From Acidobacteria bacterium UBA6911 (GTDB lineage Bacteria > Acidobacteriota > UBA6911 > RPQK01 > JAJDTT01), in contig CAUZIZ010000006.1 in NCBI GenBank assembly GCA_963579905.1, positions 1,707-65,706 of the forward strand: a stretch of DNA of 64,000 nt. The letters are read 5' to 3'. The notes below the pieces were generated by a model, which saw only the letters and a program-made list of their open reading frames with translations, ran no database searches and was not told the DNA's origin. The position numbers were made by a program, and so were the translations under genes. Position 1 is the first letter of the stretch. The number at the start of each line of letters is the position of its first letter. Shown piece after piece: positions 2,681 through 61,560 of this stretch.

Positions 2681-5101
2681 ATGCCCTCAACTACTCCATC
2701 TGAGCAGGACCTGCTTGCGTTAATGGGATCCGGTGTCACCCTGGACGCCATTCGAGCAGAAGCGGGTTTCTCCGCCACACAGTTCGATACCTGGTGGCAT
2801 CAGCAAATCCAGTCTCGCCTGCCACACCTCACCGGTAGCGCTACTTGTGAAGTCGAAACTGGAGTCGAAATCCTCAGGGACAAGTGGGGAATCCCCCATA
2901 TTTTCGCCGCGTCCGAACACGACCTTTTCTTTGGTTATGGCTACGTCATGAGCCAGGATCGACTGTGGCAGCTCGACTACTTTCGGCGCCAGGCACAGGG
3001 TCGCCTTTCAGAAGTCATGGGACCCGAAGTCCGACCCAGGGCGACCGGCGACGCCATCACCCCTCTCCAGCGCGACACCATCGCACGCACTATTGGCTTC
3101 CGTCGCATAGCCAGATCCAACCTGAAGAAACTTCCTGAAGAGACCTTGAAAAGACTCCAGTCTTTCTCTGACGGCATCAATGCGGCCAGGGTGGCTTTCG
3201 GGGATCGGCTTCCCATCGAATTCTCCCTGCTCGGCTACGAGCCCGAGAAGTGGATCCCCTTGGACTCACTTTGCATCTGGGTTGAGTTCCAATACTACTT
3301 GACCGTGCGTCTTCCGGTGATCGTTCTTCCCGAGATTGCACGTCGGACTCTGGGTGAGGGCCCACTATATGAGGCGTTTCTCACGGTCGAGGCCAGTGAT
3401 GAGAGCATTCTCCCACCCGGCTCCTATGCAGCCGAGAGGTCGGGCGCGGAACGTCCAGGCGATGTCGTCGGAGATCCGGACGGACCGGCGGGAAGTAACA
3501 ACTGGGTGGTCGCCGGTAGACGCTCCGCTTCTGGGACTCCCCTACTGGCCAGCGATCCCCACATCGCGTTCAACGCCGTTTCGTGCTGGTATGAGGCACA
3601 CCTCTCGGGCGCAGGATTCAATCTGGCGGGCGCCGGATACATCGGTGTCCCAGGAGTGATTTTCGGGCGTAATGAGAGAGTAGCCTGGGGAATTACAAAC
3701 AACATATGCTCCCAGCGAGACCTTTACCAGGAGAAAACCGATTCCGCCCATCCCGATCAGTTTCTCTACGATGGCACTTGGGAGCAGAGTCGAGTCACGG
3801 TCGAGCGCATCGCCATCAAGAACGGTGAACCGATCGACCTGCAAGTACGCTTCTCCCGCAACGGACCAATTGTCGATGACATTCTCCCCCCTTTGGGACG
3901 AGGTACTGGCCCGGTTTCGCTCCGCTGGATTGGAGCGACGTTCTGCGACGAAGTTACGAGTTTGCTGGCTGCCAACCGTGCCACGACCTGCGACGAGTTT
4001 CGCGAGGCCATGCGGGGCTGGCACGCCCCCACTCTCAGCTGGGTGTTCGCAGATGCAGACGACCACATAGCCTATCAGTGCGTCGGACACATCCCCGTTC
4101 GGGAGAACTGGAACAGGGGCTACCGTAGAGGTTGGGATCCCGAGGACCAGTGGACGGACCTGATTCCGTTCGACGGCATGCCTACCTTGTCTGATCCCCC
4201 TGAAGGGTGGATTCGTACCGCCAACAACCGTCCAGCGCCGGATGACTATCCTTATCCCCTCTCTGGAACCTGGGCTACCGGCTATCGCGCCCGGCGCATC
4301 CGCGACGTCCTTGAAGAGAAAACGGTTCTTACGCGGGACGACTGCGCACAGTTGCAGATGGATACCTACTCCCACCGAGCAGAGGAGGTCATTCCGCCCC
4401 TCCTCGAACTGCTTGGGACCGCCGAAGACTCGGAGGTCAGGGAAGCCCTCGAGGTGCTTAGGACCTGGAATCGTCGCATGGATCCGAGCGAGCCCGGCGC
4501 CGCCATCTTCGAGATCTTCTTCGCAAATTGGGAACAAGCCGTCTCCCGCCAACGCTTCCAGGGTGAGGCCATCGCACCAATGGCCGGAGCCTCGGCCGGC
4601 CTCTCTGTGCAGCTCCTGGCCGAGGACCGTAGCGGATGGTTTTCCGACGCTGATCGGGACGAGAGTGCCGCCGCAACCCTGAAGGACACACTTCGCGATC
4701 TCAGCGCCCGATTGGGACCAGACATGTCCAGTTGGTCCTGGGGCCGGATTCACACCGTCCACCTGGCCCACTGCCTTTCGAACCTGGGTGATCTGGGAAA
4801 GCTTCTGGACCGGGGAGGCCAACCCGTGGGAGGGGCTGGAACTACCGTCTGCAATACTGGCTATGATCCCACCTACATGGCCGCTATGGGTGCCAACTAT
4901 CGCCTCGTGGTTGAGGTAGGAAGCGACCCCGCGGTGCTCTGGTCTGTCGACGCCACCGGGCAGTCCGGGCATCCCGGTAGTCCCAACTATGCCGACCAAC
5001 TCCCGGAATGGCTGGCCTCGCGCCGGCACGCCATCCCCCTTGATAGCGCCCGTGTCCTAACGGAAGCCCAGACCAAGCTGCTTCTTCAGCCGCCGGTCTA
5101 G
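2681..5101 (+). CDS. Penicillin-amidase (S45, Ntn-hydrolase) family acylase
   Basis: GIPHIFAASEHDLFFGYGYVMSQDRLWQLDYFRR matches the PGA/AHL-acylase alpha-subunit signature. GSNNWVV is the beta-subunit N-terminal Ser nucleophile. ~800 aa. An alternative TTG start at 2624 overlaps the dksA-like gene. No obvious signal peptide. Confidence 0.85.
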   Translation: MPSTTPSEQDLLALMGSGVTLDAIRAEAGFSATQFDTWWHQQIQSRLPHLTGSATCEVETGVEILRDKWGIPHIFAASEHDLFFGYGYVMSQDRLWQLDYFRRQAQGRLSEVMGPEVRPRATGDAITPLQRDTIARTIGFRRIARSNLKKLPEETLKRLQSFSDGINAARVAFGDRLPIEFSLLGYEPEKWIPLDSLCIWVEFQYYLTVRLPVIVLPEIARRTLGEGPLYEAFLTVEASDESILPPGSYAAERSGAERPGDVVGDPDGPAGSNNWVVAGRRSASGTPLLASDPHIAFNAVSCWYEAHLSGAGFNLAGAGYIGVPGVIFGRNERVAWGITNNICSQRDLYQEKTDSAHPDQFLYDGTWEQSRVTVERIAIKNGEPIDLQVRFSRNGPIVDDILPPLGRGTGPVSLRWIGATFCDEVTSLLAANRATTCDEFREAMRGWHAPTLSWVFADADDHIAYQCVGHIPVRENWNRGYRRGWDPEDQWTDLIPFDGMPTLSDPPEGWIRTANNRPAPDDYPYPLSGTWATGYRARRIRDVLEEKTVLTRDDCAQLQMDTYSHRAEEVIPPLLELLGTAEDSEVREALEVLRTWNRRMDPSEPGAAIFEIFFANWEQAVSRQRFQGEAIAPMAGASAGLSVQLLAEDRSGWFSDADRDESAAATLKDTLRDLSARLGPDMSSWSWGRIHTVHLAHCLSNLGDLGKLLDRGGQPVGGAGTTVCNTGYDPTYMAAMGANYRLVVEVGSDPAVLWSVDATGQSGHPGSPNYADQLPEWLASRRHAIPLDSARVLTEAQTKLLLQPPV

Positions 5102-5661
5102 CTTTCACTGGACGTATTGAGTGGGCAGTTCAATTGAGGCACAAGGAAGATTGTGCTGCTGTCCGGTCGCTCCTCGAAACCTCAGACATTAGACGAATCG
5201 TTCAAGTTTCAGCTTAGTGCCCCCCAGGAAGCGCTGGCCCCATTCGAGAAAGAAGCCTCAGTGTCCTACGGTAGCATGGGCATCCCTGCCCGTGATGACC
5301 GATCCGTCGAGCCAAGGGCTCGACAATCACGGCCTGGAAGACCGTGCCACGGTTGGGAATCCTGAACCTGGAACCGAATGAAGTTTCAGCTTAGTCCCGC
5401 CCCCGCTGCGCTGCCCCATTCGAGAAAGAAACTTCCGGCTACTGGAGATTTGTGCTGTTGTCCAGCTCTCTCCTCGGAACTTGGCCTCATGTTGCTAACG
5501 GCTCAAGTCGTTCGCGGCTCTGTCGGACTTGACTTCGTAACGCTGGTAGTTCACCCGTTGGCGGCACCTTCGGAGGGCAGGAGACGTGCGACGTTCAGAC
5601 GAATTCTTGGAGTTCAGGTCGGGCTCCTGCTTCGCCGGGGAGGCTCCAACCTCGCGGATTG
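5102..5661. repeat. Intergenic mosaic repeat island A (two H palindromic units and one T unit: H-spacer-H-T)
   Basis: H copies at ~5204-5256 and ~5379-5436 (GAAGTTTCAGCTTAGT...CCCCATTCGAGAAAGAAACTTCC). T unit at ~5492-5577 (TTGCTAACGGCTCAAGTCGTTCGCGGCTCTGTCGGACTTG...GGCACCTTCGGAGG) with the tail GGAGACGTGCGACGTTCAGACGAATTCTT. The island lies between convergent gene ends. Confidence 0.8.
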
Positions 5662-8448
5662 CTATTCTAGAAGTTTGGCGATCCTCTTTTCGGATTCGGG
5701 GCTCCAACCTGCAAAGACATCGGCGACTCGGCCCTTCTTATCGACCAGAATCGACAGGGGAACGAACGCCTGGTCTCCGCCGTAGACCTTCTCAATGCCT
5801 GCCTCATCGATTCGGTATAAGGGATAGGAAACGCCCAGTTTCCGCGCAAAAACTTCAATCGAAGCCGGCGCTACTTCCTGATCGAGACTGATACCGAGCA
5901 GTTGGATTCCCTTTTTCTGGAAGCGGAGCTTGAGCTTTTCGAGCTCCGGCATCTCCTTACGACACGGTCCGCACCAGGTGGCCCACAAATTCAAGAAGTA
6001 GGCGGTTCCTTTCGGCAGGGCGGCCGGCGGCTCCTTTTCTTGGCCGTTCAAAGAATATAAGTCAAAAGCGGGGAGGACACCACCTTTCTTCAAGCCCAAT
6101 TTGTGCCAGATCAGATCGTCTCTACTGACCGGATCGGGGAGCGACGCAGGGCGATCCGTCAAGATTGTGTAATCTTCTGATGATTCGACGATCTTCAGCG
6201 AGGTACCGGAAGAGATCCTTCCGAAGCGATGCGACTTGCCCGATGGCCAAAGTACCTCCATCCATTCCGCCTCCTCCTTCTGTCCCAGGCCGAAAAGGAG
6301 TCGGGGATCCGGCTGAGCGAGAAAACCATTGCCGCCGGAGCACACCCGGGTCTGAACCCCATGGGCTGTCTTCAAACGCACCACCGCTCCGAAGGCGTCC
6401 CTGCCACTCTCCCTTCCCTCCAGGACAACCCTGATGAAGTTGTTCGCCTGACCTACATTATTCTTGAAGAGAAGGTGCCCTTCGCCTTGGATGGCGGTCA
6501 GAAAGATGTCCAGATCTCCATCGTTGTCGAAATCCGCCAGCACAGCGGCACGACCATCGGATATGGAGTCGATTCCAGACACTCCGGAGATGTCTTGAAA
6601 TCCTTGAGACTCAAGATTCAAGAAGAGCGCATCTCGCTCGAATCCGCTGAAAGAGAGCCCCTCACGGAACAAGAGCTTCATGTGCTCCTGCTGATAGCTC
6701 TGGTTACCCGGGTCCTCCAAGCCCACGCTGGACGCCACCACGTGGCGCCAGAAAAAGCTTCAGGTATCCTTCATGGACTTACCACTGATAAATCCGTTGG
6801 GCGAGTAAAGATCCTCCCAACCATCGTTATCGAAGTCCACGAAGACGCCACCCCAGGCCCAGCCTGCCCCGAAAGGGCCCAAGGAGGCGCTGACATCCCG
6901 GAAATCGCCCTTCGAATTGCCTTGGAACAAGCTGTTGCCTGCCGCCAGCTTTCTTAGAACGCTACGACTCGATGTGCCGCTCGGAAAGAGACGATCCAGA
7001 ATCCGATTTCCCGCAGTGGACGACATATTCGTCACGTAGAGATCCAGATGCCCATCGTTGTTGTAGTCCCCAAACGAGACCCCCATGCCATTTCCGGGAT
7101 CCAGGACACCCGATGAGTCTGCCCGATCCTGGAATCGGTCTCCCAGGTTCACGTAGAGAGCATTCTCTCCGAAGTCGTTCGCAACATAGAGGTCCAGCAG
7201 ACCGTTGCCGTCGATATCGGCGAACTGAGCGGCATAACTCCAGCGCCTGTCCTGGACGCCCCAGGCTTTGGCAGACTCGGTAAAGGTTCCGTCCTTTTGA
7301 TTGAGGAAGAGTAGATTGGGGGTTCCGTTGCTGGCCCGATGCCAGGAGTTGGGCATGACCCTTCCATATCGGTTGTAGGAAGTGACATAAATATCGGTCC
7401 ATCCATCCCTATTGACGTCCGCGGCGGTAGCACTGAAGCCAACAGCTGGCAGCGACACGCCCGCTTCCTGAGAGATATCCCGAAAACTCAACTTGCCATC
7501 CGGAATGAGGCGGTTCTCAAAGAACATCTGCTCCCCGACTGCGGCCACGAAGAGGTCCAGATCTCCATCATTGTCGGCGTCCAGGAACAAAGGCGCCGTT
7601 CCCGACAGGGTCACAGCGACACCAGCATCTTCCGCCGCATCGGAGAAGGTGCTCCCCTGGTTTCGGTAGAGGTAGTTGCGCCCAATCCCAGTGGCGAAGA
7701 CATCTATCAAACCATCTCCATCCACATCTCCTGCAGCGGCCCCGTGGTAGACGAAATCGTTGTTTCCAGGCGAGCCATAGGCAGGAAGGGACACTGAAAC
7801 GCCCGCGGGGAGAGCGACCTGCGAGAACAGGTCGACATCGGTACGGAGGGTCTGGATCCTTTCGATCCTGAAAACAGAAATCAGCCAACTCTCGGTCCCG
7901 GTTCGCTCCGCCTCGATCCGACCATCTCCTCGGACCCACAGCCGCCGGTTGCTCTGATCTCGGCCTACCAGGAAGAACTTGAATCCGCTCTTTCCAATAC
8001 CCCTCTCCGGCTCTCCCGAAAAGCGGGCCTGCTTGACCTTGAAACGAGCGTCCTCGATCTCCGAAAAAAGCGAGAGAAATGCTTCCCACGTATTCTCTAG
8101 CTGCTCCCGCATCAAGGTCGCGCTGGGCACAGGCTGAAGCACACCCAACGAAATCCACTTAATTGTTTTGGTAGAGGGCCCCAGGGACGCAGGCCAGGGC
8201 GTCGCCTGCACAGGATCGTGGAAAAAGCGGACGATTCGCTTCGGTTCTCTCTGCTGGACCGCGCTGGAAAAGTCGATAAGGGCGTTCGCTAGCGACTCCG
8301 ATAGATCCTCTACTTGCCCCAGATCCTCTTTGTCCAGCTGAAACTGACTTGGTTCTACCGATTGAGCCTCAACGAGGCCAATTCTGAGGACAAGCATTAA
8401 CACTAAAGCGTGGCTACAAAACAGATTCACTAGCCCATTATATGCCAC
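5662..8448 (-). pseudogene. CRTAC1-like FG-GAP/VCBS-repeat + ASPIC/UnbV + TlpA-like thioredoxin fusion protein, interrupted by one in-frame TGA
   Basis: ORF 6760..8448 has a signal peptide and repeated DxDxDGxxD FG-GAP motifs. ORF 5662..6741 carries an ASPIC/UnbV-like segment and the C-terminal WCGPCR thioredoxin motif. By my reading the two are in the same frame, separated only by a TGA (~6759-6763) plus 6 codons. A one-base uncertainty in my coordinate indexing around 6741-6763 means the same-frame call should be re-checked on the sequence. Confidence 0.6.
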
Positions 8449-8586
8449 ACAGGCCTCCTCCAGGGGATCAGGGAAGAAGCGTTCAGCCCCCTCCCACCGG
8501 CCGGGACTTGAGGATGTCCAGAGTGTTCACTATTCCGACCAGGTGGCCCTCATGAGTCGAAAAACAGCCGCCGATGCTTCCTCACG

Positions 8587-8616
8587 TTGACATGGGGTCA
8601 AAGATAAGAGTATGAT
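8587..8616 (+). promoter_or_regulatory. Candidate sigma70-type promoter for the RRM protein gene (TTGACA-N18-TATGAT)
   Basis: TTGACA at 8587-8592, an 18-nt spacer, and TATGAT at 8611-8616. This would give a ~200-nt 5' UTR. Sequence match only. Confidence 0.4.
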
Positions 8617-8823
8617 TTCCAGGATCTCTTCAGTACAAGGCCTCCTGAAGCTATCTCAAGAAGAAATATTGAAGGCCTAGTCAGTCTTACCCCTGCGAAA
8701 GATACCCCCATAGGAATCACCGACTGGACCGTGGCCCGCGACCAAGAATCCGACCATGTTCTGTTCCTTTATCTGTCAGCATCTCAGGGTTGGAAGACAA
8801 ACATATTCTCTTAGGAGGAGAAG

Positions 8824-9153
8824 ATGAGCAACAAACTGTATGTAGGCGGTCTACCCTATTCCACAACGGAAGAAGCGCTAGAGCAACTTTTCTCGGAACA
8901 TGGAAATGTCGAATCGGCCAAGGTGATTACGGACAGAGATACTGGTCGATCACGGGGCTTCGGTTTTGTGGAGATGGAATCCGCAGGCGAAGCACAAAAG
9001 GCGATCTCGGCCCTGAACGGCACCGATCTTGACGGACGGACTCTAACCGTCAATGAGGCCAAGCCCCGGGAGAATCGATCCGGTGGTGGTGGTGGTGGTG
9101 GTGGTTACGGCGGTGGAGGCGGAGGTGGAGGCGGAGGTCGCGACCGCTGGTAG
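8824..9153 (+). CDS. RRM-domain RNA-binding protein with a glycine-rich (poly-Gly/Tyr) C-terminal tail
   Basis: AGGAGG RBS. RNP-1/RNP-2 motifs (LYVGGLPY; RGFGFVEM). The tail SGGGGGGGGYGGGGGGGGGGRDRW is encoded by a (GGT)n tract at 9081-9135. Confidence 0.9.
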   Translation: MSNKLYVGGLPYSTTEEALEQLFSEHGNVESAKVITDRDTGRSRGFGFVEMESAGEAQKAISALNGTDLDGRTLTVNEAKPRENRSGGGGGGGGYGGGGGGGGGGRDRW

Positions 9154-9180
9154 CTCCGTAGATTTATAGCACTAACCAAA

Positions 9181-9216
9181 AGAGGGGCGTCCGGGTCGGT
9201 TCGCCCCTCTTTTGCG
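9181..9216 (+). terminator. Rho-independent terminator after the RRM gene
   Basis: AGAGGGGCG / 12-nt loop / CGCCCCTCT, followed by TTTTG. A second hairpin AAGGGCAG...CTGCCCTTTCTT lies at ~9251-9284. Confidence 0.6.
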
Positions 9217-9544
9217 TGTGGGCACCCAACCTCAGCAGCAGTTCCGATCCAAAGGGCAGCGATACTACTTCCCTGCCCTTTCTTGTCAGTGCCCCCCCAG
9301 CGGTGCTGCCCCGTTCGAGAAAAGAAACTTCCGGCTACTGGGGATTTGTGCGGCTCTCTCCTCGAAACCTGGGCTCATTTCGCTAACGGCTCAAGTCGTT
9401 CGCGGCTCTGTCGGACTTGGCTTCGTAACGCTGGTAGTTCACCCGTTGGCGGCACCTTCGGAGGACTGGAGACGTGCGACGAATTCTTGAAGTTTCAGCT
9501 TAGTGCAAACAAGTTCTTCCGAACCCGCTCGCATTTCGTTCTCG
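9217..9544. repeat. Mosaic repeat island B (H variant, T unit, partial H; full composite element ~9280-9505, + orientation)
   Basis: T at ~9380-9462 is near-identical to the island A copy. It ends with GAATTCTTGAAGTTTCAGCTTAGTGC, a direct repeat of the H 5' end. Confidence 0.8.
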
Positions 9545-33258: not shown

Positions 33259-33720
33259 CCACGAACCTCCATACAGACAATAGTCTGGGAGCCAAGCGAA
33301 TCCTATCAGCTAGCGACGGCCAATCCTATGGGTATGATGCTGCGACCTTCGACGATCAACCCAAGCTGAAACTTCAAGAATACGTCGCACGTCTCCTGTC
33401 CTTCGAAGGTGCACCAACGGGTGAACTACCAGCGTTACGAAGCCAAGTCCGACAGAGCCGCGAACGACTTGAGCCGTTAGCAAAATGAGCCCAGGTTCCG
33501 AGGAGAGAGCCGGACAACTCTTCCCCACGCAGTGACGCACAAATCCCCAGTAGCCGGAAGTTTCTTTCTCGAATGGGGCAGCACCGCTGGGGAGCCACTA
33601 AGCTGAAGCTTCATTGGGCAGGAGATCATCCAAGGGTCGCCAATGACAGAGCCGTGACTGCGAAGGAGCGGTCCCGGCATACGGATGCCGGAAACAACGA
33701 ACCAAACGGACGGTGGCTGA
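33259..33720. repeat. Mosaic repeat island D: complete T+H composite element (minus, ~33362-33612) plus the left arm of an S element (~33620-33720)
   Basis: Reverse complement of H-T-tail. It ends CATTGGGCAGGAGATCATCCAAGGGTCGCCAATGACAGAGCCGTGACTGCGAAGGAGCGGTCCCGGCATACGGATGCCGG. Confidence 0.8.
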
Positions 33721-33808
33721 CTGGACCTCCATTTTCGGCATCTCCCGCAGGAAGGCTCAAGTTGCTCCAACCGATGCCTATAAGCCAGGAGGAGGGAGTT
33801 ATCATCAG

Positions 33809-35344: not shown

Positions 35345-35356
35345 ATCGGGTCGTTC

Positions 35357-35440
35357 GAAGATGGTATGAAGATGAGATGCCAAAATGCCAAGGTATTTTG
35401 CGCAGACCCTCAGCTATAGTACTCTGAAACTGAGGAACGG
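35357..35440 (+). promoter_or_regulatory. Conserved leader motif (copy 1 of 2): AT-stem hairpin with a conserved loop, then a Shine-Dalgarno-sequestering hairpin
   Basis: GAAGATGGTATGAAGATGAGATGCCAAAATGCCAAGGTATTTTGCGCAGACCCT is ~87% identical to 46860-46916. CAAAAT/ATTTTG stem. CCTCAG...CTGAGG stem overlaps the GAGGAA SD 5 nt before the ATG. Confidence 0.45.
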
Positions 35441-36454
35441 ATGCCAAAGCGACTCGTGATTCGCGGCCCCCGCCAGGCCGAGTTTGAAGAAGTGCCCGTG
35501 CCGGAGTGCACCTCTGATGGAATTCTGGTACGCGCCCGGACTACCGCTATTAGCACGGGAACCGAGTTGAGGGTCTACCGCGGAATTCCGGTGGATCCCG
35601 AGGGACGATTCATTTTTCCCAACCAGCGCCTTGAGTTCCCAATCGAGAATGGCTACTCCATGGTTGGTGATGTGATCCAGGTCGGATCGCGCGTCAGCGA
35701 TCTGGCAAGAGGCGATCGTGTTTTCGTGCCCGAACCTCATAAGCAGGTGGCAGCCTGTCCGGCCATCCAGGCGACACGGCTTCCCGAGGGCCTTCCGGAT
35801 GAGGTAGGACCGTTCCTCCACATCCTGGAGGTGGCTCATATTGCACTACGTCGTGGGCAACCCTCGCCCGGCGAGAATGTGGCCATCTTTGGTGCCGGGC
35901 TGATTGGATTATCCGCCCTGGCATACGCCAAGGCCTTTGGACTGAGAACGGCGGTGGTGGACCTCGACCCGAGTCGGTTGGCAGTTGCGGCGTCCATGGG
36001 AGCCGATTGGACGGGCAGTCCGAAGGATGTCGGTTTTGAGGAGCAGGCAGTAGACTTCTTCGACGGCGACGGAGCCGATCTGGTATTAGAGGCTGCCTCG
36101 ACCTGGGCTGCAATCGAGGCCGGTCTTCGCATCGCACGACCCGAGGCAAGGGTGGTTGTGGTCGCTCGGCATACCGACCAGCCGGCCTTCAGCGCAGTCG
36201 GCTATCCCTACTTGGCCAAGAATCTATCCATTCGCACCTCGTACGGGCATCTGGCCCCGGGGACACGCTGGGACCGGAGACGGTCGCAGGCTCTGACACT
36301 CGATCTACTGGTTCGGGGACGCCTGAACGTTGGCCCCATCATCACTCATCGGTTCGACTGGCAAGAGCTTCCAGACGTCTATCGAAGAATGGATGCCTCA
36401 GCGCCGGAGATGATTGGTGTCGCCATCGACTGGTCCGGAAATAGTGCGCAGTGA
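35441..36454 (+). CDS. Zinc-binding alcohol dehydrogenase (MDR) family oxidoreductase
   Basis: 337 aa with a GAGLIGLSALAYAKAFG Rossmann motif. Confidence 0.85.
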   Translation: MPKRLVIRGPRQAEFEEVPVPECTSDGILVRARTTAISTGTELRVYRGIPVDPEGRFIFPNQRLEFPIENGYSMVGDVIQVGSRVSDLARGDRVFVPEPHKQVAACPAIQATRLPEGLPDEVGPFLHILEVAHIALRRGQPSPGENVAIFGAGLIGLSALAYAKAFGLRTAVVDLDPSRLAVAASMGADWTGSPKDVGFEEQAVDFFDGDGADLVLEAASTWAAIEAGLRIARPEARVVVVARHTDQPAFSAVGYPYLAKNLSIRTSYGHLAPGTRWDRRRSQALTLDLLVRGRLNVGPIITHRFDWQELPDVYRRMDASAPEMIGVAIDWSGNSAQ

Positions 36455-36627
36455 GCAGTAGTGGAGTGAGCAGTGGCCTGTACCGGAAACAGCTGCAGCC
36501 AACAGTCGGGAGCGACTCGACTTTGTTTACATTATGAGTCCACGTTCCGAGGAGCGACCGGTCACAGCACAATCTCCCCCAGTATTCAGTCAAGGTTTCT
36601 CCCTGAACGATTGAGTGCGGCTGGTGG

Positions 36628-41770: not shown

Positions 41771-41938
41771 AGTGGTGGCGTGAGCAGTGGTGGAGTAGTG
41801 TAGTGGTGCAGTAGTGTAGTGAGCAATGATCAGTCGATCGGTGCCCAGACAACAGCTACGGCTTGCAACTAATTCCTACGGATCACTCCACTACTCCACC
41901 ACTCCACTACTGCTCACTCCACTACTGCACCACTACAC
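41771..41938 (+). repeat. Heptad-arm inverted-repeat element (copy 1): AGTGAGC/AGTAGTG-type arms flanking a conserved ~45-nt core
   Basis: Arm1 GTGAGCAGTGGTGGAGTAGTGTAGTGGTGCAGTAGTGTAGTGAGCA. Core GATCAGTCGATCGGTGCCCAGACAACAGCTACGGCTTGCAAC. Arm2 CACTCCACTACTCCACCACTCCACTACTGCTCACTCCACTACTGCACCAC is roughly complementary to arm1. It fills the divergent intergenic region and ends at the cytochrome RBS. Confidence 0.75.
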
Positions 41939-45578: not shown

Positions 45579-46297
45579 AGTCTCCTCGGTGGAAGCTAGC
45601 CTAAAACTTGAACGATTCGTCGGAACGTCGGCACGTCTGGACGTCGCACGTCTCTTCTCCCGGGAAAGTGCGGCGAACGGTTCCGACGGAAGCTTCGAAT
45701 GGCGAGGTGATCATGAAGAATCGCCAGATGTCAGAGCCGTGCCCTTCAGGGTTCGGCCCCTGATCGGGGGCCGAACCTGGCAGCTCCGCCTTGGAAGTTT
45801 CCTCCTGAATGATCCAGCTGGGGCGGGACTAAGCTGAAACTTCATTTGGTAGGAGATCATCCAAGAGTCGCCAATGACAGAGCCGTGACTGCGAAGGAGC
45901 GGTCCCGGTATACCGGTGCCGGAAACAACCGACCAAACAGACGGTGACCGATCACATCCCCTTTTGCGGCATGTCCCGATCGGTGATCGGGACCGCTCCT
46001 TTGCAGTCACGGCTCCGTCATTGGCGGTAGCGACAATCACGGCAGACGTAACCGAAGTTTCGTTCTCGAATGGGGCAGCACCGCTGGGGCGGGACTGCCC
46101 TGAAACTTGAGCAGTGAGCAGCGCCGCAAACCGGTGAACTAGCAGTATTACGAAACCAAGTCCAACAGAGCCGCGAACGACTTGAGCCGCTGGCAATTTG
46201 AAGCCAGCTTTCGTGGAAAGAGCCGGACGACAGCAAAATCTCTTCCGCTCTACCGGCTGACATTTCCGCCTTCCAGTTTCCCTTCGCCACACTGAAC
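45579..46297. repeat. Mosaic repeat island E: tail fragment, H, complete S element, H, T, and a diverged copy
   Basis: H(-) at 45794-45843, S at 45871-46024, H(-) at 46050-46108, T(-) at 46128-46196. Between convergent genes. Confidence 0.8.
45871..46024. mobile_element. S element: MITE-like ~154-bp unit with ~37-bp terminal inverted repeats and two internal hairpins
   Basis: Left arm CCAATGACAGAGCCGTGACTGCGAAGGAGCGGTCCCGG. Right arm CGGGACCGCTCCTTTGCAGTCACGGCTCCGTCATTGG, 34/36 complementary. Internal hairpins CCGGTATACCGG and GTCCCGATC-GGT-GATCGGGAC. No ORF. Confidence 0.6.
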
Positions 46298-46642: not shown

Positions 46643-46859
46643 AACTCGTAATCACCAGCCTCTTCCTTTTCACCTGTAACCGCCAATTTAGAGTGGTAAG
46701 ATGCTCCGTCTGGGATCTGCGGTCTTTTCTAAGGGTCTGCGCAAGAATAACTTGGTAGAATTGGCGCTCAGATTTGCGCCAGATTTGGCCGCAAACGATT
46801 GAGCGAAACCACAGGCGTAGCCGGGTCTACGTTGAGGATTTCGCGATTGAGGAGCGGCC

Positions 46860-46938
46860 GAAGATGGTGGGAAGATGAGATGCCAAAATACCAAGTTATT
46901 TTTGCGCAGACCCTAAACAGGCGTTAGGAGTTTCAACC
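46860..46938 (+). promoter_or_regulatory. Conserved leader motif (copy 2 of 2) upstream of the NRAMP gene
   Basis: GAAGATGGTGGGAAGATGAGATGCCAAAATACCAAGTTATTTTTGCGCAGACCCTAA. The CCTAA...TTAGG hairpin overlaps the TTAGGAG SD. Confidence 0.45.
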
Positions 46939-50722: not shown

Positions 50723-50872
50723 TAATCGAGTAGTGGAGTAGTGAGCAGTGAGCAGTGAGCAGTGAGCAGTAAGCAGTACGCAGTAAGCAGTGATCAGGTC
50801 TGTCGGTGCTCAGATAACAGCCACAGCTTGCAACCCACTGCTCACTTCACTACTCCTCACTGCTCACTGAAG
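50723..50872 (+). repeat. Heptad-arm inverted-repeat element (copy 2) between moxR and the DUF58 gene
   Basis: (AGTGAGC)4-like arm AGTGAGCAGTGAGCAGTGAGCAGTGAGCAGTAAGCAGTACGCAGTAAGCAGTGATCAG. Core GTCTGTCGGTGCTCAGATAACAGCCACAGCTTGCAAC is ~80% identical to the core of copy 1. Arm2 CACTGCTCACTTCACTACTCCTCACTGCTCACTG. Confidence 0.75.
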
Positions 50873-58447: not shown

Positions 58448-59030
58448 GTATCTTGATAGTGGATGGACGCACAATTCGCGCTCTCCCGACCCTGAAATTT
58501 CATGGGATAGGAAATCATGCAGAAGCAGCCGTTTGACAGAGCCGTGACTGCGAAGGAGTGGTACCGGCATACCGATGCCGGAAGGCAGTGACCCGTGGAC
58601 CTTCTTCCTATGGACTCACCACATGTCCCGATCGATGATCGGGTCCCGCTCCCTCACGGTCACGGCTCTGTATGCACGCCGAAGCAACCGCGCGGCGGGA
58701 TCTTAACCCTTCAAAGCTCCAAGGGCTTTTGCGACACGCTCTATTGTGGATCATTCGAAGTTTTCTTATCGAATTGGGCCAGCGTTTCCTGGAGGCGGGA
58801 CTAACCTGAACCTTCAACCACGAGGAAGCGAAGCAACATTCGCTAGTTGACAGAGCCGTGACTGTCAGGGAGCGGGGCCCGACGGGGCCCATACCCCCCG
58901 ACGCTTCCAGGTTGCAGGGGGTTGCTAGCAATGATCATGGCAGAGACGGTACAAGTTTCTTTCTTAAATGGGGCCAGTACTTCCTGGGGGCCTTACTAAC
59001 CTGAAATTTCGACGTGAATGATCCGAAACG
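58448..59030. repeat. Mosaic repeat island F: S copy (58535-58671), H(-) 58757-58815, diverged S-like 58849-58949, H(-) 58951-59011
   Basis: Same modules as islands D and E. The arms of the S copy pair with two T-G (G-U) wobble positions. Confidence 0.8.
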
Positions 59031-59308
59031 CGTGCTCTTGCCCTTCGCTTGGGCTTACAATAGGCAACGAGCTACCCTGGGTTCCGTGTGCAACCCCGAC
59101 GTGATTGAGGTGGTACCTAGGAGTGTGGAAGCATTCCATGTTGTACCTTTTTCGGGGCGAAGAACCTGCTTCCGATTCACACCAGAGTAGCTCGTTACGG
59201 TAGCAGCGGACCCTGGAAGCTCAGAGAACGTGAGGGGGAACCGGGGAGATGGTTCTTATCCCCCGCGATCTCTGGCTTCCTGGTTCGCTACTCAGCTATG
59301 TCTGCCCA

Positions 59309-61482: not shown

Positions 61483-61560
61483 CGTGATCTTCGTAGGGTG
61501 GGCACTCCTGCCCGTCGTTTTAAACGACGGGCAGGAGTGCCCACCCTACGAAGATCACGA
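61483..61560. repeat. Perfect 78-bp palindrome (39-bp arms)
   Basis: CGTGATCTTCGTAGGGTGGGCACTCCTGCCCGTCGTTTT|AAAACGACGGGCAGGAGTGCCCACCCTACGAAGATCACG. The two arms are exact reverse complements of each other. Confidence 0.9.

Follow-up and report, generated by a model that had tools for sequence, protein, structure and literature searches.

An extragenic palindromic repeat family of Acidobacteriota, arranged in modular arrays, whose arm mismatches do not point to selection for RNA structure

The window analyzed here is a stretch of 64,000 nucleotides from contig CAUZIZ010000006.1 of Acidobacteria bacterium UBA6911, and a long hairpin at its 58.5-kb position raises the question of whether such an inverted repeat is maintained as RNA or as DNA. 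The first-pass annotation described this hairpin as one of three copies of a MITE-like element, here called S, and took two T·G pairs between its arms as a sign that a plus-strand transcript is under selection for its structure. Our comparison of the copies leads to a different answer. S is probably a non-autonomous palindromic DNA repeat of the REPIN or long-TIR MITE kind, which spreads as DNA and is not an RNA gene. The features of the window to which the text refers are listed below, and L numbers label the sequences used for comparison.

58535-58671, plus strand: S hairpin of subfamily S2, consisting of left arm, hairpin 1 (CCGGCAT-ACCG-ATGCCGG), spacer, hairpin 2 (TCCCGATC-GAT-GATCGGGT) and right arm.
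58494-58756, plus strand: whole S2 module, consisting of the 8-mer GAAATTTC (58494-58501), a leader with GGAAATCATG (58502-58534), the hairpin and a trailer (58672-58756).
58757-58815, plus strand: linker h, with GAAGTTTT, a G-rich core, ACTAACCT and GAACCTTC.
58816-58952, plus strand: S4 module, with a left arm of a different arm type (58848-58875, CTGTCAGGG) and a small GC hairpin, lacking a right arm.
58953-59010, plus strand: second linker h, ending in GAAATTTC, the right edge of a block missing from L122.
45829-46053, plus strand: complete S1 module, with left end CTAAGCTGAAACTTCA (45829-45844), leader, hairpin (45871-46024) and trailer.
46054-46108, plus strand: linker h on the 3' side of the S1 module.
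33640-33747, plus strand: partial S1 copy with left arm, hairpin 1 and interior, lacking the right arm.
33557-33612, plus strand: linker h on the 5' side of the partial S1 copy.
45697-45793, plus strand: short relative S3, with a leader of the same kind (GGTGATCATG ... TCAGAGCCGTG) followed by one 11-bp hairpin.

The three copies were recovered at 45869-46026, 58536-58671 and 33640-33747 (left arm and interior), and the two internal hairpins read as the first-pass annotation gave them. The 45.8-kb copy has arms of 39 nt (45869-45907 and 45988-46026) with a complementarity of 95%, in agreement with the near-perfect inverted arms described for it, and the 58.5-kb copy has arms of 41 nt (58536-58576 and 58631-58671) with a complementarity of 76%. 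The 33.6-kb copy is 84% identical to the full copy over positions 1-108. The list of three was correct as far as it went and missed the left-arm-only copy at 58848-58875 and the short relative S3. The 16-mer of the S left arm, searched with up to three mismatches, occurs at 9 sites in the window compared with 0.77 expected, and 0 of 100 shuffled sequences reached 9; the copies are real and far above chance. Compared with shuffled sequence, the two full copies fold with z = -7.6 and -10.8, the latter for the 45.8-kb copy. S is small, has long inverted arms and contains no ORF. A meaning for the 12-13 kb spacing of the three copies was also considered; the genes flanking the copies are unrelated, so the spacing was set aside as a coincidence.

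Alignment of the copies together with their flanks shows that the S hairpin is not free-standing. It is embedded in a module of ~220-320 nt composed of a left end, a Shine-Dalgarno-like leader, the hairpin and a trailer. Bounding the element by its hairpin, as had been done, is right for the hairpin itself and leaves out the conserved sequence beyond it, which at 58.5 kb comprises the module at 58494-58756 and the linker at 58757-58815. The scaffold reads as a left end CT[AG]A[CG]CTGAAACTTCA, a leader TAGGAGATCAT[C/G]C...CGCCAATG, the hairpin, and a trailer ending in GAAGTTTC. The linker h is G-rich, ~55 nt long and of the form GAAGTTTC..TTCTCGAATGGGGC..GGGGGC..ACTAAGCT GAAACTTC. It joins the modules head to tail into co-oriented arrays, with 10 copies in the window and 89 across all the sequence collected. 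The S2-type unit of ~320 nt is also found, with 81-84% identity, in L094, L098, L103, L104, L109 and L112. The scaffold is common to other module types, namely A (with CAGAGCCGCGAACG), B (with a long GGTCTCCAGGCC hairpin), a GTAG-tagged REP doublet, and the short S3 and S4, and S would thus be one of several hairpin "cargo" types carried on it. In the window, the REP doublet with the GTAG tag lies at 61483-61559 and forms a perfect palindrome with 38-nt arms, each of which consists of GTAG and then the small hairpin GGGCA-CTCC-TGCCC; this type also follows the common leader in L045, L053, L074 and L084. Two other identities were tried and rejected. The linker h is not an integron attC site, since the core sites RYYYAAC and GTTRRRY are missing on inspection, and the ATG of the leader is not a coding start, since the start codon is not kept and indels disrupt the frame.

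The window contains six arrays, located after or between ordinary genes, and five of them are co-oriented with the upstream gene. As a separate observation, linker h is on the minus strand in its three copies at 5.2-9.3 kb (5204-9331) and on the plus strand in the other seven, at 19.9 kb and beyond (19856-59010), and the GC skew of the window changes sign at ~17-21 kb. The orientation of h may track the direction of replication rather than that of the genes, as far as one short window can indicate.

To read the arm pairing, we aligned 41 distinct S copies, each oriented by its leader. The 58.5-kb copy has 24 Watson-Crick pairs at its 31 arm positions, and the other seven are two T·G, two A·C or C·A and three transversion mismatches. 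The earlier statement that most arm changes keep pairing therefore fails, since only two of the seven are wobbles. The A·C and C·A pairs of the plus strand would be the wobbles of the minus strand. The T·G at arm position 15, the C·A at 17 and the A·C at 20 are common to all of the ~10 members of the subfamily and to the copies in the CBDCMS genome, and the T·G at position 25 is private to the 58.5-kb copy. The arm types of the family differ at four positions of the 9-mer C[TC]G[CT]NA[AG]GG, and five types are perfectly matched on both arms. The 58.5-kb subfamily has a left arm of type 1 and a right arm of type 5, and this combination accounts for three of the four transition mismatches in that copy. 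Over the whole alignment, G·T mispairs fill 43 cells and A·C mispairs 45, from 12 and 13 distinct position/state combinations, respectively (p = 1.0), a symmetry that rests on ~25 distinct states and would be compatible with a mild bias. Thus, both T·G pairs exist as reported, but they do not point to plus-strand RNA, since A·C is equally common across the family and one of the two T·G pairs is inherited by the whole subfamily. Nor is G·T specific to RNA, since it is also the least destabilizing mismatch in DNA hairpins. Finding a few such pairs in a single copy is no evidence for RNA selection.

The arms nevertheless co-evolve. Between subfamilies there are 39 doubly changed cells compared with 14.9 ± 3.6 in shuffles, and 0 of 500 shuffles reached this number, in a control that ignores kinship. 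The covariation that the first-pass annotation had proposed to look for is therefore present. Together with the high stability of the hairpin, it speaks for the alternative that S is a structured ncRNA, or a MITE with a processed plus-strand transcript, whose arms are selected for RNA pairing. This alternative also draws on the co-orientation of most arrays with the upstream gene, which probably makes the plus strand part of a transcribed 3' UTR, and the same case has been made for REPs from their G-T pairing (PMC3733652). Against it stand the equal numbers of G·T and A·C and the behavior of the other strand. The minus strand folds as RNA equally well or better than the plus strand (-77.9 vs -76.3 and -95.4 vs -91.8 kcal/mol for two copies), and when folded as DNA the two strands of S are likewise similar. 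In addition, a search of Rfam at gathering and permissive thresholds returned only generic long-hairpin miRNA models, far under their thresholds, and a consensus scan near the 58.5-kb copy found no promoter or terminator, including no T-run terminator. Three arm mismatches fixed in the 58.5-kb subfamily have not prevented its spread to ten or more loci.

Comparison between strains also speaks against selection on RNA pairing. Between the window and a strain that is 98.6% identical, the S hairpin differs at 3 of 154 positions, the array at 9 of 662 and coding sequence at 4 of 1181; these are small numbers, which correspond to 1.95% divergence for S and 0.34% for coding sequence. Two of the three changes in S disrupt arm pairs and are uncompensated. 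The rate of change in S is about that of other non-coding DNA between the strains, and S shows no sign of purifying selection relative to it. The idea of selection on the RNA structure of S is thus not supported: the arm mismatches give no sign of it, and we consider an RNA gene or a processed transcript improbable as the explanation of S. The mirror test, which counts A·C pairs and folds the other strand, was cheap and decided the RNA question here.

The complementarity of the arms would instead be kept at the DNA level and not by plus-strand RNA pairing. Three processes could do this. The hairpin may form in single-stranded DNA during transposition, both arms may have to fit one protein, or the palindrome may be corrected by template switching.

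A role in transcripts could still be secondary to spread as DNA. In this alternative, which is compatible with the preferred explanation of S as a DNA repeat, S spreads as DNA and many copies are co-opted in 3' UTRs or between cistrons as mRNA stabilizers, RNase III sites or attenuators, roles that REP and Correia elements also play. Since most arrays follow co-oriented genes, S hairpins should often lie in 3' UTRs; arrays begin at stop codons and in some cases occupy the whole interval up to the next start codon. The orientation of S is biased ~2:1 toward that of the upstream gene, but about one third of the copies are upstream of divergent genes. An S module is also retained between a DUF1553 and a DUF1501 gene in two more distant genomes. 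At this site, identity is 81% in the S hairpin and 84-87% in the flanking genes; the left arm and hairpin 1 show almost no change and the right arm differs. This conservation of the left arm could equally be explained by gene conversion among copies, and the strand symmetry of the mismatches and the lack of a T-run terminator likewise weigh against a function in RNA. Co-option of many copies is therefore an unlikely addition, although the orientation bias and the near-perfect left arm at the orthologous site leave room for a secondary role of S in transcripts; nothing demands it.

Regarding mobility, comparison of filled and empty sites shows that S modules are gained or lost as DNA, in one orientation and without target duplication. 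For example, the gap between the convergent genes qor and rumA is 315 nt in L039 and L123 and consists entirely of an S module and h, whereas in three related genomes that have no S at this site the gap is 9 nt (L125), 40 nt (L124) and 50 nt (L126). The left junction falls on the stop codon of qor, which reads TCC TAG tgg in the empty site and TCC TAA GCTGAAACTTCA in the filled site, and the length of the Qor protein is the same in both. A CTAA/CTAG pair at this locus was considered as a target duplication and rejected because it belongs to the end motif of the element itself. At the batE locus, a block of 509 nt (58502-59010), containing the S2 module, h, the S4 module and h, is present in the window and missing in L122, whose BatE is 84% identical to that of the window. 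The block is bordered by the direct repeat CCTGAAATTTC, and gain and loss are both possible. In a third genome, a type A module lies immediately 3' of the native TGA of this locus. The T[AG]A of the left end also serves as the stop codon of an ORF of 100 codons or more at a minimum of 11 loci. The arrays of modules occupy the space after genes and often start at the stop codon itself.

The first-pass annotation had also suggested searching for target-site duplications beside S; none was found at the ends of the S hairpin, at the ends of the module or at the two filled/empty locus pairs. Its MITE-like reading holds in broad terms. The dispersed and identical copies, the filled and empty sites, the long inverted arms and the missing ORF agree with it, but neither a target-site duplication nor, in ~1 Mb of related sequence, a matching transposase was found, and what is repeated is a larger module that occurs in arrays. 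An HUH/Y1-type or site-specific mechanism may be suspected from three features: no target site is duplicated, the orientation is fixed, and insertion takes place in tandem beside resident ends.

We looked for the enzyme in ~1 Mb of related sequence and found no transposase flanked by S arms. Where inverted S arms are spaced 250-4000 nt from each other, the sequence between them is an IS256 insertion or consists of ordinary genes. That insertion, in L024 (~4790-6160), is the only IS found between S arms and belongs to the IS256 family, with a transposase of 414 aa (PF00872, E = 1.3e-56); it has its own unrelated, imperfect inverted repeats of ~28 nt and is inserted in hairpin 2 of S with an 8-bp duplication (ATCACCGA). 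A search with tblastn, using Y1 transposase sequences as probes, gave one real Y1 gene confirmed by Pfam (PF01797, E = 8.9e-21); a weak RAYT-like match in L087 was rejected, having no Pfam support. The Y1 (IS200-like) gene and three homologues are flanked by TIRs of 58-142 nt made of several small hairpins and unrelated to the S arms, and neither S nor h is present at the four Y1 loci examined. Pairs of these TIRs that lack the gene occur elsewhere in related genomes. The transposase genes and TIR pairs lie at L025 395-1190, in L127, L128 and L129, and at L106 3565-3907 and L125 1130-1390. The repeats flanking Y1 are a second long-TIR family, unrelated to S.

These results also bear on the reading of S as a classical MITE, in which a DDE transposase binds both terminal inverted repeats. 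The inverted arms of 37-39 nt, the small size and the missing ORF would suit such an element, as would the blocks CAGAGCCGTGAC and GGAGCGG, which are invariant in both arms. However, target-site duplications are absent at the hairpin and module boundaries, the conserved sequence extends beyond the arms, and the sole IS between S arms is the IS256 insertion with repeats of its own. Moreover, four arm positions vary between subfamilies yet remain matched. We therefore hold mobilization by a DDE transposase to be quite improbable.

The occurrence of S is consistent with its spread as a DNA repeat. When one genome per species was scanned, S was present in the Acidobacteriota MAGs CBDCUP01 (~20 loci), CBDCMS01, CBDCOR01 and JAKZYH01; lone 16-mer matches in unrelated taxa in the same scan are at the chance level for a 16-mer. 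A search with a two-arm pattern added 28 metagenome contigs with S, and viral contigs and plasmids gave no match. In CBDCUP01, seven copies of S are identical and several more are one or two bases apart, at unrelated loci, which indicates recent spread. The S arm motif was found in the literature only as unrelated primers. As a further observation, the sequences L085 (6858-7332) and L046 (1459-1558) seem to hold an S copy that is interrupted, between model positions 85 and 100, by ~310 nt of inserted sequence.

The arrays also affect assembly. The window matches ENA and JGI metagenome contigs at 99.99% identity. Compared with window positions 33390-33582, the independent metagenome contigs L087-L090, which come from the same genome, stop within the array upstream of the PEPCK gene, and L087 passes into different sequence from inside a linker. 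S arrays break or chimerize short-read assemblies, and they account for the metagenome assembly breaks at these sites.

We compared S with known systems. The closest likeness is to REPINs, which are REP doublets that form hairpins and are mobilized by RAYT tyrosine transposases (Bertels & Rainey 2011, PMC3116915). For REPINs, compensatory changes, singlets and ordered clusters are described, with single-stranded DNA as the presumed setting of hairpin formation (PMC3116915). Like a REPIN, S consists of two inverted conserved repeats around a less conserved spacer, forms a long hairpin and shows compensatory changes across it; it leaves single-arm remnants (33640-33747 and 58848-58875), occurs in ordered clusters that include flanking sequence, is extragenic and makes no target-site duplication. 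Unlike REPINs, it has arms of 27-31 nt that are not self-palindromic and carry no GTAG or CGTC tag, with small palindromes merely adjoining the arm. It is also embedded in the larger scaffold of leader, trailer and linker, and no RAYT is flanked by S arms in ~1 Mb of host sequence. Acidobacteria are among the taxa with long-TIR families linked to tyrosine transposases, termed TIRtrons or TIRYTs (Di Nocera et al. 2013, PMC3733652). S resembles these in its phylum and in having long inverted arms instead of short REPs, and TIRtron-like Y1 transposases with their TIRs and gene-less TIR pairs are present in related genomes, as described above; however, no sequence is common to those TIRs and the S arms.

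In architecture only, S resembles enterobacterial BIMEs as they are generally known, which are extragenic arrays after genes with palindromic units alternating with a few conserved linkers. Its sequence appears unrelated to theirs, and it differs in having several types of modules of 100-250 nt in one orientation, anchored on the stop codon. By analogy, the arrays might be binding platforms for chromosome proteins, with the hairpins incidental, as proposed for BIMEs. The mosaic of palindromic units and conserved linkers and the invariant blocks in the arms would fit this proposal, but the presence of the arrays varies between close relatives and their sequence changes fast, so that a role as binding platforms seems highly improbable. 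Correia elements (CREE/NEMIS) of Neisseria are abundant intergenic elements of 100-155 bp with inverted ends that form long hairpins in transcripts; their insertion duplicates a TA target, and RNase III cleaves them. S is similarly small, intergenic and hairpin-forming with inverted ends, but lacks the target duplication. The MIRUs of mycobacteria, which are simple tandem repeats, lie directly after genes in one orientation with an end that overlaps the stop codon. GTAG REPs can also supply the stop codon of a flanking ORF (PMC3733652). S modules share with both the position directly 3' of genes, the single orientation and the end that overlaps the stop codon, but in S the stop codon comes from the T[AG]A in the 16-nt motif at the left end of a much larger module. 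S is a previously undescribed family; its kind of element, covariation between arms and ends that supply a stop codon are already known from other repeats.

A more specific idea is that the modules are cassettes belonging to a site-specific insertion system of Acidobacteriota that has yet to be described, which would place them in a single orientation, beside an already resident CT[AG]A[CG]CTGAAAYTTC end or onto a stop codon. We think this doubtful, though it deserves mention. If such a system existed, arrays would be built after genes without target duplication, and the hairpins might serve in 3' UTRs. Read as a DNA repeat, S adds a long-armed palindromic repeat family and stop-codon-anchored modular arrays to a poorly studied phylum, and its point of interest is the insertion mechanism and these arrays rather than the RNA idea.

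Lastly, the window contains other features. The conserved non-coding block at 59011-59308, between convergent genes, is 84-88% identical in four related loci (L119-L122). Its consensus fold has a long closing helix (AACGAGCTACCCTGG / CCAGAGTAGCTCGTT) and an energy of ~-87 kcal/mol, and on the plus strand most one-sided changes stay G-U. The block gave no match in Rfam, and from its predicted fold it is a candidate unannotated structured RNA. Two repeats are unrelated to S, namely a tandem 31-mer at 41876-41937 and an inverted pair of CACTCC/GAGTG-rich repeats at 36443-36476 and 50835-50868. Finally, a 44-nt motif at 35356-35399 and 46859-46902, with copies that are 91% identical, lies just upstream of unrelated genes starting at 35441 and 46939 and is possibly a shared regulatory or leader sequence.
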